Source: a virus (Duplodnaviria; Caudoviricetes). From it: 60,021 nt of DNA. This document shows positions 20,968 through 60,021 of this stretch, piece by piece; the first letter of the stretch is position 1; every line of letters begins with the position of its first letter. The position numbers and the translations under genes are program-made. The DNA lies in the IMG/VR virus record IMGVR_UViG_3300021411_000007, positions 1 to 60,021 of that record; one strand, 5' to 3'. The notes under the pieces are model-generated. The model ran no database searches, was not told the DNA's origin, and was given only the letters and a program-made list of their open reading frames with translations.

Positions 20968-21426
20968 CTAATGGCCTCTTAAGCCATTTATGCCCCTCAA
21001 TCCTAATGGATCTCCGTCAACAGGAGCATTGAGATATCTTTCTCGAAACTCATCATTAATGGCCTCGCTGGCCTTCTTCCACTCTGTCCCCTCAAGATCT
21101 AGCTCATTGTAGATCTTGAGGGGAATACCCGTGAGGGAGGCATAGAACTTTTCTTTCTCTCTTTCCTCGTTGATGGCAGATTGGTGCGCAATACGCTCAT
21201 TGTCCTCTTCTTGGAAAAGAGAGAGGAACTCATTAAAATATTCCTCAGATACCATCTCGGCTTTATGCTGCTTGCAGATCCGACTCTCAGCCTCATCAGG
21301 CGAGACATTCCGAAGGATACCGCCCTCGACCTGCCTTCTTCCGCATGAGAATGAAGACTCATCAAGAATGGAATACTCGATATCGCCCGATATTGGACAA
21401 ATACGGTTAATTTTTGCTATCTTCAT
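20968..21426 (-). CDS. Acidic hypothetical protein
   Basis: 152 aa, GAGGTG RBS. Confidence 0.6.
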   Translation of the reverse strand: MKIAKINRICPISGDIEYSILDESSFSCGRRQVEGGILRNVSPDEAESRICKQHKAEMVSEEYFNEFLSLFQEEDNERIAHQSAINEEREKEKFYASLTGIPLKIYNELDLEGTEWKKASEAINDEFRERYLNAPVDGDPLGLRGINGLRGH

Positions 21427-21450
21427 GTCTCACCTCTCTTTCTGATTGAG

Positions 21451-21690
21451 CTACAGATCTACTTCAAATCCCTGGCTTTTGAGATGCTCTACAACATGCT
21501 TCATCGTGGCGTACGGTGTTCCAGGCGGGAACGTCACGCTGGGATATCTAAGGGACTCATCCACTTCCAGGCCATTGATCCCAGCAGGTAGAGCGGCCTG
21601 GACCTGCTCTACCGTTGCGAACTTTGTGCTTTCCCCTTGTATCTTGGGCGCATAGGGGACTTTGATATACTGGCGATGCCGATCACTCAT
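21451..21690 (-). CDS. Hypothetical protein
   Basis: 79 aa, tightly packed in operon. Confidence 0.55.
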   Translation of the reverse strand: MSDRHRQYIKVPYAPKIQGESTKFATVEQVQAALPAGINGLEVDESLRYPSVTFPPGTPYATMKHVVEHLKSQGFEVDL

Positions 21691-21699
21691 GATATTCTC

Positions 21700-22011
21700 T
21701 CAATCGGTCAGTTGACCGAGCTGATACTCAGGATTGTGCACGACGGCTACAACGTACTTTTGAAGCTTGGGGTCCCAAACCGCAACCGCACCATAGGCGT
21801 GCATGACCGCGTGGGCAATCGTGAATGCACAAGGCAACGATGCGGGACCATTGACCCTCAAGAGGGGACCGCCTTGCAGACCACCGTCCTCTTTGATCTC
21901 TGCAAGACGCGATGCAGCATCCTTGACGATCTCTGCATTCGTGGCAGGATCGCCAAATTTGACATTCAAGATGCTCTGCTCAGGATTGAAATCGATAATG
22001 AAACTTGACAT
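21700..22011 (-). CDS. csx3: CRISPR-associated Csx3 (Crn3) ring-nuclease homologue
   Basis: 'LNVKFGDPATN.EIVKDA', 'LLRVNGPASLP.AF.IAH...H.YGAVAVWDPKL.KYVVAV.HNP.Y.LG' match the Csx3 family pattern; H71/D80 spacing equals A. fulgidus H60/D69. Confidence 0.85.
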   Translation of the reverse strand: MSSFIIDFNPEQSILNVKFGDPATNAEIVKDAASRLAEIKEDGGLQGGPLLRVNGPASLPCAFTIAHAVMHAYGAVAVWDPKLQKYVVAVVHNPEYQLGQLTD

Positions 22012-22040
22012 TGTTAGAATTTCCTTTCAACTTGTAGATA

Positions 22041-22081
22041 CTTCGAGCCCATTCGACTCGCATCGCACACGGCACTGAAAC
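22041..22081 (+). repeat. Solitary degenerate CRISPR-repeat-like sequence
   Basis: CTTCGAGCCCATTCGACTCGCATCGCACACGGC-ACTGAAAC; ends in an ACTGAAAC handle; single copy, weak stem. Confidence 0.3.
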
Positions 22082-22094
22082 CAAACGAGAGGGA

Positions 22095-22376
22095 CTACCC
22101 TCGACTCCGAAGATACTCATCCTGATCCCACTCCATAGCATTCCTGCCACCAGAACCAGGATTGCCCTTCCCTTTCAGTACGCGGCGCTCTTCGGTGAGA
22201 GTATCTTTTTGAGTCACTAGCTCTTCCAGCTCTTTCTCAAGAGAGGATCTCTCTTGCTTGCTTACTGTCCATTTCTTAGTACGTAGGGTACCGATTTGGG
22301 TGCCCAATCGAAGAGACTCTTTCTCAATCTCTTCAAGGCGTTTGAGATTATTTAATGTCTCCTGCCCCCACTGCAT
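22095..22376 (-). CDS. Coiled-coil hypothetical protein
   Basis: Likely start MQWGQ after GAAAGGTG RBS. Confidence 0.55.
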   Translation of the reverse strand: MQWGQETLNNLKRLEEIEKESLRLGTQIGTLRTKKWTVSKQERSSLEKELEELVTQKDTLTEERRVLKGKGNPGSGGRNAMEWDQDEYLRSRG

Positions 22377-22424
22377 AATTCTCACCTTTCTTGTGCTAGA
22401 GCACTGCCTGAACATCAGGCTTTA

Positions 22425-22658
22425 CTATTCGGCAGTATAACTGCCATAATCCGTCCAGCGGGCAATGCCGTCGAACTTATGAATCGAGATGGACATTTGT
22501 CCATTTCTTTTGTTGAAAGTCTCGATTTTGAGACTTTCAACTCCACTATCTCTGCGATCCCAATTCTGGGAAGTGCTGAGAACTGGCATTGCCACTATCT
22601 CAGCTTCCGTGAATACATACTCTTTCGGCATTCCACCGACGTACACATCTTGCTTCAT
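22425..22658 (-). CDS. Hypothetical protein
   Basis: GGAAAGG RBS, 77 aa. Confidence 0.55.
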   Translation of the reverse strand: MKQDVYVGGMPKEYVFTEAEIVAMPVLSTSQNWDRRDSGVESLKIETFNKRNGQMSISIHKFDGIARWTDYGSYTAE

Positions 22659-22720
22659 GAAAAACGCCTTTCCTGCCTGACATCAGGCGTGCTGACTACT
22701 ACTGATCCCGCCACCAGGGA

Positions 22721-23143
22721 CTACTGTAACTTTGCTGCAACTTCCTGGAGATACCCAGATCGTTTCAGCGCCTTTTTGATGCACTCAGCTTTGTCCGCAT
22801 CGACTGCTACCCACGACCGCGTATTGTTTGAGAAGACCCATTGCTCTGCTACGTCGTACGCCTCGTACGCCAGCTTCACAGACTCGCCATGGGACTGGAA
22901 AACTTCATTTGCTGCTGTTTCAAGCTGCTCTAAACTGAATGTCTCGGCTTTTTTCTCAAGCTCAGGACGCCTCTTGAGCAGATTGCGGACATCCTCACGA
23001 TCAAATGGACTGAATGTCGTCTCAGACCGCTCTTCACCATCATAGTCATACTTGACGCTGAAATTGCCTTTTTCGTCGTTGAGTGGCTCTATGGAGAGGA
23101 TAATTTCCTCTGGAAGATTTTTATTTCCTACGCTGATTGTCAT
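22721..23143 (-). CDS. Hypothetical protein
   Basis: AAGGAG RBS, 140 aa. Confidence 0.6.
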   Translation of the reverse strand: MTISVGNKNLPEEIILSIEPLNDEKGNFSVKYDYDGEERSETTFSPFDREDVRNLLKRRPELEKKAETFSLEQLETAANEVFQSHGESVKLAYEAYDVAEQWVFSNNTRSWVAVDADKAECIKKALKRSGYLQEVAAKLQ

Positions 23144-23173
23144 TGCTTTTTCTCCTTTTTGTTGCTCTCTTGC

Positions 23174-23815
23174 TTACTTTTGAACTACTTTCTTGGTGAG
23201 TCGGGCTTCAGCTTCAAGCAACTGCATGCCTGACTCATACCAACCCCCAAATCCTTCTGTAACATGGACTTGCCTGTCTCCCAAGAAAGCAATGCCATAT
23301 TCTTGGTTGTTGGTGAAGACTTCCACATTTTCTCGTGGCTTGCTTTCACCTTCCAGAAGGACTCGGCAAAGAGGATTGCCTGTTAATTTAGCTCTTTCAA
23401 TCGCATTACTCACGAAATCGCTCCTTTTGCCATCAGGGAAACTATCAACAATTTTTGCTGCTTTTCTGCTGATGGTATACGTTCGCTTTACAGTATCTTT
23501 GGTAGATGGCCTGCCACCGGTGTGCTTTGGCTTCTCCTGAATTTCAGGCTCTTGCACTGGCTCAGGGAAGACAACCACAATCTTGACATACTCAGGACCG
23601 TTGAGCTTGGAAGCTTTCTCAGCTTTCTTGAGTGCCTCTTGCTCTGAAGTCGTCTCAAGAACGTTGGTGGTATGACCTGCGAGACCTGTCTGAAGAACTG
23701 CATAAGTCTTCTCAGTGATTGGTTTCTCTGGAAGCTTTCCAGTGCTCCAACTTCTCTCCTCAGAGGTGTAGAAGCGACCTGGAAGGTCATTAACTGTAAC
23801 AATTTCGTAGTCCAT
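23174..23815 (-). CDS. Multi-domain protein with central hook plus ribbon-helix-helix-like DNA-binding segment
   Basis: 'GGRPSTKDTVKRTYTISRKAAKIVD....GKRSDFVSNAIE'; first gene after promoter. Confidence 0.6.
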   Translation of the reverse strand: MDYEIVTVNDLPGRFYTSEERSWSTGKLPEKPITEKTYAVLQTGLAGHTTNVLETTSEQEALKKAEKASKLNGPEYVKIVVVFPEPVQEPEIQEKPKHTGGRPSTKDTVKRTYTISRKAAKIVDSFPDGKRSDFVSNAIERAKLTGNPLCRVLLEGESKPRENVEVFTNNQEYGIAFLGDRQVHVTEGFGGWYESGMQLLEAEARLTKKVVQK

Positions 23816-23848: not shown

Positions 23849-23878
23849 ATTGTAAGATATATCCTACCTATCTGTCAA
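23849..23878 (-). promoter_or_regulatory. Sigma70-type promoter of island operon
   Basis: TTGACA-N18-TACAAT. Confidence 0.65.
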
Positions 23879-24038: not shown

Positions 24039-24070
24039 AAAAATAGGGCTACCGACAATTGATAGCCCTG
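24039..24070 (-). terminator. Intrinsic terminator
   Basis: AGGGCTA/TAGCCCT stem followed by T-tract on the minus strand. Confidence 0.6.
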
Positions 24071-25186: not shown

Positions 25187-25447
25187 CTAGAGATTTGCGT
25201 CCCTTCCTCTTTCAGGCAATTCAATATCTTCCAAGCTAACCAGTCCGGTCTTGAGTGCCCAGATAGCGAGCTGTACACGTGACGTGAGTCCCAATTCTTG
25301 CAAGATATCACTAACATGCGTTTTTGCCGTTGTTGATGCTAGCCTCATCTCTAAAGCTATGGCATCATTTGTATAGCCGTGGGCTACATAACGCGCTACT
25401 TCCATTTGACGCTTCGTGAGCACAAAGTAAGCAGGTAGTGTTTTCAT
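25187..25447 (-). CDS. LuxR-type HTH regulator (stand-alone)
   Basis: 'LTKRQMEVARYVAHGYTNDAIA......T.KTHVSDILQELG..SRVQLA'. Confidence 0.85.
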   Translation of the reverse strand: MKTLPAYFVLTKRQMEVARYVAHGYTNDAIALEMRLASTTAKTHVSDILQELGLTSRVQLAIWALKTGLVSLEDIELPERGRDANL

Positions 25448-26295
25448 ACCACTTCCTCACTCAAGAACAATACTTGCTGCTTAGGTGTGGATAGAGCCTT
25501 TTCAACTTTGCGCTCATAGGCTGGTTGCGCTATCCCCCACGCGTGCTGCCGTTGTGTCAAGCCACTTTTCTTGTATGCCTCTATCCCTCTGCCTTTCCGG
25601 TCATTCCAGGCTGCGCTATCCACACTGATAATTTGCTCAGGCATGGCTTCACTGGATTGCAGATAGCCGAGTTTGACTCCCCACAAATGCACAGGCACGT
25701 CTCCCAGCTCGGTCACGACCACATTAACAACTTGCCTGATCATCTCAGCACTTGCACGTCTGCAGAGCGTACCAATCCCCACGCGAAAGGGCCGGCCTGC
25801 ATAGTGCAATCTCATCTCGTCTATGAGTGGCTTCATCTCTCGAGCATGTCGTCTGTAGTCGGCTACCTCCCAACCTTGCACAGTCGGTACCCATACCCAC
25901 GGGACGCCTCGGTAGTCATCCCAGAACCTGTAAGCCATACCTGTGGTCAACTGCTGCCTATCACGAACTATCCCAGGCTTACCCGATGTGATTTCATCCT
26001 CACAACAGTAATCCATGGTTGCAGCCCAATCTGGCTTCCAAGTGTGCAACCACTGGACATACTGCTCTGGACTATAGCGGTACTGCCCTCCCCACTTGAA
26101 GCTAGCGACAAATCCACCACAGTCAGCTGCTCGCTGACTCACATGCTCAGGCAAATTTGGCTTGAGGAGATAATAGCCTCCATCCTTTGCACTCTGCCGT
26201 ACGAAACTAGAAGCAGGTAGCAAGATTGGCACGTCAGGCATGTAGGGACGAATATCACTTGAACTAACAGTGTAGTAAAACTCAAATGTGCTCAT
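25444..26295 (-). CDS. TGT-fold, DpdA-like transglycosylase (putative base-exchange enzyme)
   Basis: DCGGF, MDYCCE, PTVQGW, GIGTLCRR, HLWGVK, SVDS motifs in TGT-family order. Confidence 0.75.
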   Translation of the reverse strand: MSTFEFYYTVSSSDIRPYMPDVPILLPASSFVRQSAKDGGYYLLKPNLPEHVSQRAADCGGFVASFKWGGQYRYSPEQYVQWLHTWKPDWAATMDYCCEDEITSGKPGIVRDRQQLTTGMAYRFWDDYRGVPWVWVPTVQGWEVADYRRHAREMKPLIDEMRLHYAGRPFRVGIGTLCRRASAEMIRQVVNVVVTELGDVPVHLWGVKLGYLQSSEAMPEQIISVDSAAWNDRKGRGIEAYKKSGLTQRQHAWGIAQPAYERKVEKALSTPKQQVLFLSEEVV

Positions 26296-59656: not shown

Positions 59657-59944
59657 ATGGCAGACAAGAATACTACTCCCCCATCTGAGGGAGATCCAAA
59701 GGACACCGCTGGTTTCCCTGTAGGGGAATACGGTAGCCATCCAACGACAAACGATCACAGAACGCTCGTTGACGCTCTCAAGCAGGCTTTTGGTGATAGA
59801 TCTGTCTATCCACCTCCATCTACTGAGGTGAAAGTGGGGATGGATGAAACTATCCCAAATGGGAAGTACATTCGATTTGGTCAGCTTGTGAACGCTCATG
59901 GCGAACCTATCGATGAGCAAGGCAACAAGCTCAAAAAGGACTAG
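59657..59944 (+). CDS. Small protein downstream of capsid
   Basis: 'ETIPNGKY....LVNAHGEPI'. Confidence 0.55.
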   Translation: MADKNTTPPSEGDPKDTAGFPVGEYGSHPTTNDHRTLVDALKQAFGDRSVYPPPSTEVKVGMDETIPNGKYIRFGQLVNAHGEPIDEQGNKLKKD

Positions 59945-60021
59945 GCATGAACAGAGTCGATGCCACAAGTTTGCTCACTCAGCAGTATAGGGAGCTGGTA
60001 ACCAACACAAAGTTTACCAGC
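59871..60021. repeat. Terminal direct repeat copy 2
   Basis: Matches 1..151 with 2 mismatches. Confidence 0.97.

Follow-up and report, generated by a model that had tools for sequence, protein, structure and literature searches.

A csx3/crn3-like gene of an uncultivated soil phage encodes a candidate cA4 ring nuclease with a possible anti-type III CRISPR role

Cellular Csx3 (Crn3) is presented in the excerpted text of PMC7371418 as an off-switch of type III CRISPR signalling. The A. fulgidus enzyme (AfCsx3) described there binds cyclic tetra-adenylate (cA4) with an apparent dissociation constant (KD) below 0.1 uM and assembles around this ligand into head-to-tail filaments. Its residues H57, H60 and H80 are absolutely conserved, with H57 and H60 on the dimer symmetry plane; the H60A and D69A variants are inactive, while R71A and H80A are strongly reduced in activity (PMC7371418, excerpts). 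Ring nucleases carried by phages are already known, namely AcrIII-1, a viral SAVED protein and phage copies of Crn4b, Csx15, Csx16 and Csx20 (published excerpts), and viral ring nucleases are the main known phage route against cyclic-oligoadenylate signalling. A full-text literature search found no paper on a phage-encoded Csx3/Crn3. The gene examined here is of that kind. It lies in the IMG/VR virus record IMGVR_UViG_3300021411_000007, a tailed phage from a soil metagenome, whose whole analysed stretch of 60,021 bp is called the window below. In the list of open reading frames (ORFs) it reads:

21700..22011, minus strand: csx3/crn3-like gene, 103 aa, ATG start; candidate cA4 ring nuclease

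By sequence comparison, the window protein is a true but divergent Csx3/Crn3 homologue of a bacterial and viral subfamily. We consider it probable, with moderate confidence, that it acts as a viral cA4 ring nuclease and so as an anti-type III CRISPR factor.

The 103-aa frame is confirmed, and H67, H71, D80-P81-K82 and H92, to which a sequence-only reading of this DNA had drawn attention, were counted in its translation. Across the family alignment H71, D80, P81, K82 and H92 are invariant and H67 is conserved in at least 90% of sequences. All 49 candidate relatives scored E <= 1e-3, with values down to 3.4e-51 and a best non-self match at 81% identity, and 284 cluster representatives reached the same threshold. 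A Pfam search of the window protein returned Cas_csx3 (PF09620) as its sole match, over residues 66-101; the gathering threshold is passed with a marginal score (21.3 bits against a cut-off of 21). The same model is matched by 31 of 32 aligned relatives, with a best E of 4.9e-9. Full-length similarity (residues 1-103, 39-55% identity) extends to bacterial proteins, some of which are annotated as Csx3.

Profile searches connect this subfamily to the characterised archaeal enzyme. A phmmer search of the single window protein against PDB sequences gave nothing at E <= 1; with profiles of 32 and 73 relatives, the only PDB matches at E <= 1e-3 were AfCsx3 chains (E 4e-4 to 9e-4), which made up five of the seven matches at E <= 10 in one search and all five at E <= 1 in the other. 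A canonical set of 12 distinct archaeal Csx3 proteins, all above the cut-off of the TIGR02579 model and including AfCsx3 (locus L100, which shows the residue numbering of the A. fulgidus papers), was then compared with the 73-sequence family profile using hhalign. The match reached a probability of 98.5% with E 2.4e-15, over 58 columns at 26% identity. It pairs H67, H71, D80, K82 and H92 with H57, H60, D69, R71 and H80 of AfCsx3, N54-G55-P56 with S44-G45-R46, and L59 with I49. The glycine and the hydrophobic residue of the ligand loop are kept and both arginines are changed, with lysine at the R71 site in 42 of 43 clade members. The nine-residue spacing of H60 and D69 that the sequence-only reading had given for AfCsx3 is seen both in L100 and in the PMC7371418 excerpts. 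Taken with PF09620 and the residue pairing, the hhalign result bears out that reading's claim of a Csx3/Crn3 homologue with the catalytic set present.

To place these residues in a structural frame, the protein was modelled with AlphaFold2 from a 32-row alignment. The model has a predicted local distance difference test score (pLDDT) of 96.5 and the order strand-strand-helix-strand-helix-strand-strand. The best Foldseek matches in the PDB were cA4-bound Cat1 chains, 9mue_B (probability 0.97, E 0.017) and 9mud_A (0.94), and STAS/anti-sigma antagonists were also matched; against the viral models of BFVD there was no match at E <= 1e-3. Such matches fit published descriptions as far as modelled folds allow: Crn3 is said to resemble STAS domains (PMC12409355, excerpt), and the 'CARF' domain of Cat1 has been placed among Csx3-family domains and stacks head-to-tail on cA4 (excerpt of the 2026 preprint 10.64898/2026.10.26.761840). 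A two-copy complex prediction scored 0.92, against 0.01 for the best control; the mark for this score is attained by 20 of 30 proteins whose solved structures are same-chain pairs and by 1 of 23 solved as single chains. Contact agreement between runs was at least 96% and partner pLDDT at least 94, and the predicted contacts include 62:62 and 66:66 on the histidine-bearing helix. This dimer pass may reflect model memory, Csx3 dimers being already solved.

The genomic setting is that of a phage. The record has a CheckV completeness of 99%, and its ends (1-151 and 59871-60021) are 98.7% identical over 151 nt by blastn; IMG/VR classes it as linear without end repeats, and by its sequence it is probably a complete genome, either terminally redundant or circularly permuted. 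Its genes include those for a tape measure protein, a large terminase, a GH25 lysin carrying an LGFP repeat, a primase of the D5 type, DpdA and Dam, and the terminases closest to its own (37%) are found in Thermobifida and Streptomyces phages. Whole-record hidden Markov model (HMM) searches for RAMPs, the Cas10 palm2 domain and Cas1 gave no match in each case, and neither a repeat-spacer scan nor Tandem Repeats Finder detected a CRISPR array in the record, so the statement that the genome holds no other cas gene or array was upheld. Apart from one antisense shadow ORF, no window ORF of at least 50 aa had a match among the proteins encoded at the 80 cellular loci described below. The phage record thus has no type III association, as expected for a viral copy, and the gene has one feature of the viral anti-CRISPR class in being virus-encoded, among phage hallmark genes and with no RAMP, Cas10 or Cas1.

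Relatives were collected by a pattern scan of IMG/VR, which gave 14 loci, and by a scan of one genome per species, from which the best 80 of 118 matches were kept. Neighbouring proteins were clustered and the cluster representatives scanned with Pfam, so that family detection is partial. The cellular loci are all at most 57% identical to the window protein and come mostly from cyanobacteria, Patescibacteria, Chlorobiaceae and Poribacteria; the families found near their csx3 genes include Cas10, RAMP, CARF (Cas_APE2256) and WYL. Cas10/RAMP genes or a true array occur in the fetched flanks of 31 of the 80, true arrays being present at 12 loci, and neither was detected at the other 49, many of them in Patescibacteria. 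At the 14 viral loci the fetched flanks held no Cas10/RAMP gene or array, and none of the 10 other viral records searched whole gave a RAMP match. Several apparent arrays were rejected: L005:798-1175 is a G+C-rich minisatellite built from units of 12 and 27 nt, those at L015 and L020 proved to be simple tandem repeats, and a doubtful one at L038 was dropped. A tblastn search of plasmids matched 13 cyanobacterial records, including Synechocystis and Nostoc. In the ESM Atlas the nearest clusters are Csx3-named, and in two of them Uroviricota is the commonest phylum among the few classified members. Among large ORFs near csx3 in the other IMG/VR loci, 4 of 10 had PHROG matches.

Phylogenetic analysis separates the window protein from the cellular copies. 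In a tree of 139 rows, built by a quick IQ-TREE run and with well-supported clades starred, it falls in a starred clade of 43 rows with a Shimodaira-Hasegawa-like approximate likelihood ratio test (SH-aLRT) support of 96. This clade comprises 6 IMG/VR rows (the window included), 4 metagenome loci and 33 metagenome proteins, while the 80 genome loci all fall outside; it is a virus/metagenome-only clade, and calling it virus-only rests on the six IMG/VR records, the phage-like context of locus L096 and the clade's absence from the 80 genome loci. Within it H67, H71 and D80 are conserved in 43 of 43 rows, K82 in 42 and H92 in 41. A second group of 9 rows includes 6 further IMG/VR rows and keeps H67 in 4 of 9 and H71 in 6 of 9. 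The nearest cellular clade, also starred, is a cyanobacterial one of 21 rows, 17 of which have Cas10 or RAMP genes nearby, together with CARF proteins. When 13 canonical archaeal rows serve as the outgroup, the viral clades are nested among the cellular sequences, with the cyanobacterial rows nearest the root. This nesting is consistent with capture from cells, as the sequence-only reading had proposed, but the relevant forks are unstarred (support 80-94) and the outgroup branch is long, so that capture is not established.

The csx3 gene is under purifying selection. Among four full-length copies (the window and L096-L098, 78-81% identical) the ratio of non-synonymous to synonymous substitution rates (dN/dS) is 0.09-0.16, with synonymous sites near saturation. 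Locus L096 shares only csx3 with the window, at 81% identity; its flank carries a helix-turn-helix regulator, an HNH endonuclease and a DnaC-like loader. This replication-module context is unrelated to that of the window, which indicates that csx3 moves between backgrounds.

A mechanism can be proposed by analogy with the Csx3 enzymes of A. fulgidus and M. mazei. The tailed soil phage would produce a stand-alone Csx3/Crn3-type enzyme that forms a homodimer, and two dimers would stack head-to-tail around cA4. D80 and K82 would come from one face and H67, H71 and H92, holding Mn2+, from the other, and cA4 would be cleaved by the complex to linear di-adenylate (A2-P). In an infected cell the host type III Cas10 would thus lose its second messenger, and the cA4-activated effectors would stay off, giving an anti-CRISPR effect. 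We infer the substrate, the metal dependence, tetramer formation, the timing of expression and the effect on immunity.

Several observations weigh against this proposal. The first group concerns family assignment. The window protein misses the equivalog cut-off of TIGR02579 (18.3 against 55.4 bits), so that of the Csx3 models against which an HMM search had been suggested, PF09620 is reached and TIGR02579 is not. When five cellular genomes were searched with TIGR02579, three gave Csx3-subfamily matches of 21.7-23.3 bits, two gave none and no match passed; the model was passed in 13 of 301 genomes of the sampled archaeal phylum. Because cellular members of the bacterial subfamily also fall below the cut-off, TIGR02579 describes the archaeal type only, and the failed test marks the subfamily and not the phage copy. 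The match to canonical Csx3 is confined to residues 43-103 and leaves the N-terminal 42 residues unaligned. The sequence-only reading had seen a Csx3 pattern along the whole length; this holds with respect to bacterial Csx3, while archaeal Csx3 and the Pfam and TIGRFAM models cover only residues 36-103 (the C-terminal 60%). AfCsx3 is absent among the 50 Foldseek matches listed, and none of the matches listed has E <= 1e-3. Across the whole subfamily R71 is replaced by lysine and R46 by proline, and since these arginines are changed, the substrate could differ.

The second group concerns occurrence and effect. When the window protein was compared by tblastn with 50,697 records of deposited phages, no copy was found, and no Crn3 is listed in the excerpts of a 2025 survey of 28,114 cultured phage genomes, which reports AcrIII-1 in 36 genomes, Csx20 in 4 and Csx16 in 2 (PMC12409355); phage copies of csx3 are rare. 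Copies are also lost. The gene is truncated in 4 of the 14 IMG/VR loci (L001, L002, L003 and L013) and degenerate in one (L014): the L001 and L002 copies end at residue 86, before H92, L013 retains a C-terminal fragment only, and the L014 copy lacks the two helix histidines. L003 is a syntenic sister phage of 60,043 bp with direct terminal repeats and is 100% complete. Through a deletion of about 195 nt its csx3 has lost the ribosome site, the start codon and some 44 codons at the 5' end; what survives, in an alignment of L003:9977-10189 with window 21700-22098, is the hairpin upstream and codons 45-103, at 80% nucleotide identity. Finally, M. mazei Csx3 expressed in E. coli relieved cA4 immunity only partly in comparison with AcrIII-1 (PMC7371418, excerpt).

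Other roles for the protein were weighed on the same evidence. It might bind cA4 without much turnover, its dimers stacking on and sequestering the messenger like other phage cyclic-nucleotide sponges. The tight binding and the filaments of AfCsx3 (PMC7371418, excerpt) would suit such a role, as would the incomplete histidine set of the second viral clade and the L001/L002 form that stops before H92. We nevertheless regard sequestration as unlikely, since binding alone would not require the residues that the window clade keeps almost without exception, and D69 and H60 are catalytic in AfCsx3. Similarly, a doubtful proposition is that the enzyme is a ring nuclease or phosphodiesterase for another signal (cA3, cA6, a CBASS nucleotide or some other messenger). 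The ligand-contacting residues do differ (P56 for R46 and K82 for R71), 49 of the 80 cellular loci lack a detected Cas10/RAMP family or valid array, and ring nucleases such as Csx15 and Crn4 are broad in specificity in the published excerpts. Both characterised Csx3 enzymes, however, are reported as cA4-specific in the text excerpted, type III core genes and CARF proteins accompany 17 of the 21 cyanobacterial-clade loci, and a failure to see cas genes is weak evidence when family detection is partial. A further idea, which we hold to be a long shot, is that the virus-only clade works mainly as a dominant-negative 'filament capper' and not mainly by catalysis. It arises because Csx3-type domains stack head-to-tail on cA4 and Cat1 builds active filaments likewise; a free viral dimer would co-stack on cA4-loaded host sensors or on host Crn3, block effector assembly and destroy the ligand, combining decoy and nuclease at the assembly step.

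The truncated and degenerate copies, together with the 5'-deleted gene of the complete sister L003, might also suggest a dispensable passenger that has no role in infection and is being lost. This seems very improbable, given the low dN/dS between the four full-length copies, the invariant catalytic residues and the recurrence of the gene in unrelated contexts; patchy loss is typical of accessory counter-defence genes. No more credit is given to protection of a lysogen, in which the protein would damp type III autoimmunity raised by prophage transcripts and have no lytic-cycle role. The off-switch function of cellular Csx3 (PMC7371418, excerpt) is in its favour, but the whole record gave no match to a tyrosine integrase or a resolvase-type serine recombinase, and the csx3 block also holds replication and DNA-modification genes. 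Destruction of cA4 by a viral ring nuclease is the reading we retain.

The small genes that adjoin csx3 in its minus-strand block match no known family, and the block lies behind a promoter match of 11/12 positions. The features around csx3 are as follows:

20968..21690, minus strand: two small downstream genes (79 and 152 aa), the first beginning 10 nt past the csx3 stop; ORFs, no family match
21637..22008, plus strand: 123-aa antisense shadow ORF over csx3; its sole match is the same antisense frame in L042
22022..22026, minus strand: Shine-Dalgarno-like AAGGA, 10 nt before the csx3 ATG; read from the sequence, putative function
22086..22103, minus strand: 6-bp G+C-rich hairpin and T-rich run in the 83-nt gap before csx3; consensus scan
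22095..23815, minus strand: four small upstream genes (213, 140, 77 and 106 aa); ORFs, no PHROG or Pfam function at threshold
23849..23878, minus strand: near-consensus sigma-70-type promoter, TTGACA-18-TACAAT, 11/12; consensus scan only
24045..24069, minus strand: terminator-like hairpin closing the preceding transcription unit; consensus scan

The promoter at 23849..23878 is the probable start of the operon that holds csx3, and the hairpin at 22086..22103 is a candidate weak terminator or attenuator-like element, 24 nt of which are 96% identical in L003. The four upstream genes are largely replaced in that sister phage. The plus-strand ORF at 21637..22008 was rejected as a gene, homology and dN/dS favouring the minus-strand frame. 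A CRISPR repeat in the csx3 leader was likewise rejected: the 119 nt upstream are unlike any repeat of the fetched loci, and the hairpin is shared with L003 only. PHROGs gave no function for csx3 or most of its neighbours, and a Megablast search of the 8 kb around csx3 against deposited phages found no match. Two hints to the host come from metagenome-assembled genomes: one labelled 'Chloroflexi bacterium' carries an 81%-identical Csx3, and a protein of one labelled 'Ktedonobacteraceae bacterium' shares the C-terminal domain of the lysin at 70% identity. The stretch is contained in two DNA sequencing runs from a single soil sample, a possible source of the phage; the listing gave no RNA run, which is uninformative about expression. 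Elsewhere in the record, dpdA (window 25444-26295) is absent from L003 (6552-6720), where window positions ~26297 and ~25204 both align at ~6590. Since dpdA and csx3 both differ between the sisters, two accessory counter-defence-type genes vary.

Analysis of the other csx3 loci gave further observations. A protein of ~197 aa with an HD_4 domain (PF13328) lies within the fetched 10-kb csx3 flanks at 20 loci (L001:10968-11621, L012:11336-12052, L013:6884-7486, L018:7743-8336 and 16 more), among them cyanobacterial type III loci and four viral loci; it is absent from the window. This protein may act as a second enzyme in the signalling pathway that Csx3 serves. Two or three Csx3-like genes occur together in some IMG/VR viruses, as at L005 (9484-9912 and 6224-6889, both on the minus strand) and likewise at L006, L007 and L012; one extra viral gene stands divergently beside the main copy and matches PF09620 at E 3.4e-5. 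At L032-L036, L045-L047 and L074-L092, mostly from Patescibacteria and uncultured lineages, many csx3 genes adjoin a Csx3-related protein of ~190-260 aa and a TrmB-like regulator. Under the same partial family detection their flanks showed no Cas10/RAMP gene or array, and these loci may represent a CRISPR-independent use of Csx3 or merely an incomplete view. In cyanobacterial type III loci (L015:10502-11419, L017:2575-3162 and similar) a longer Csx3-related gene without a Pfam match directly follows the short one and may be the 'Csx3 prime' form named in the PMC7371418 excerpts.

If the window clade is active, it would represent a mechanistically different anti-CRISPR enzyme, metal-dependent and with an active site shared between stacked dimers, from a family missed by cultured-phage collections and seen only in uncultivated soil and environmental viruses. 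The sister phages with intact and deleted csx3 form a natural pair for cost and benefit, and the small protein should suit existing cA4 and MtbCsm/Csx1 assays.

Among known systems, the nearest characterised proteins are AfCsx3 (AF_1864; PDB 3WZG, 3WZH, 3WZI, 6VJG, 6YUD) and M. mazei Csx3. Like them, the window protein is a single domain of ~100 aa. It shares with AfCsx3 a homologous C-terminal 60 residues, equivalents of H57, H60, H80 and D69 with an H-to-D spacing of 9, the correspondences G45 to G55 and I49 to L59, and a predicted homodimer with the histidine helix on the symmetry axis. Unlike AfCsx3, it is phage-encoded without cas genes, its N-terminal 42 residues do not align, and it has lysine for R71, proline for R46 and asparagine for S44. 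The closest cellular counterparts are the cyanobacterial short Csx3 proteins, such as those annotated as Csx3 on the Nostoc plasmids NZ_CP046704.1 and NZ_CP151101.1, which align over the full length at 51-55% identity and share the motifs N54-G55-P56, S58-L59-P60, H67, H71, D80-P81-K82 and H92; the literature searched held no characterised member of this bacterial short-Csx3 subfamily. Cyanobacterial csx3 genes stand beside Cas10, RAMP, CARF and WYL genes, usually with a second, longer Csx3-related gene, whereas the phage gene is solitary and belongs to a separate starred clade.

AcrIII-1 (Crn2, DUF1874) has the same proposed role, that of a viral enzyme destroying cA4 against type III CRISPR (published excerpts), but differs from Csx3 in its unrelated fold, its metal independence and its single-dimer active site; that the two families are unrelated, as the sequence-only reading had stated, agrees with the excerpts of PMC12409355. 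The cA4-sensing domain of Cat1 (PDB 9MUD/9MUE) is the best structural match to the window protein (probability 0.94-0.97, TMq 0.50-0.56) at a sequence identity of 8-12%, and differs in belonging to a cellular TIR effector, where it is a sensor and not a dedicated nuclease. Csx16, Csx20, Crn4b, Csx15 and AcrIII-2 (viral SAVED) offer a further parallel, as cellular ring-nuclease families found on phages or plasmids and presumed, in the published excerpts, to be anti-CRISPRs; their folds differ (CARF-like, the Crn4 fold and SAVED), and none of them is Csx3.

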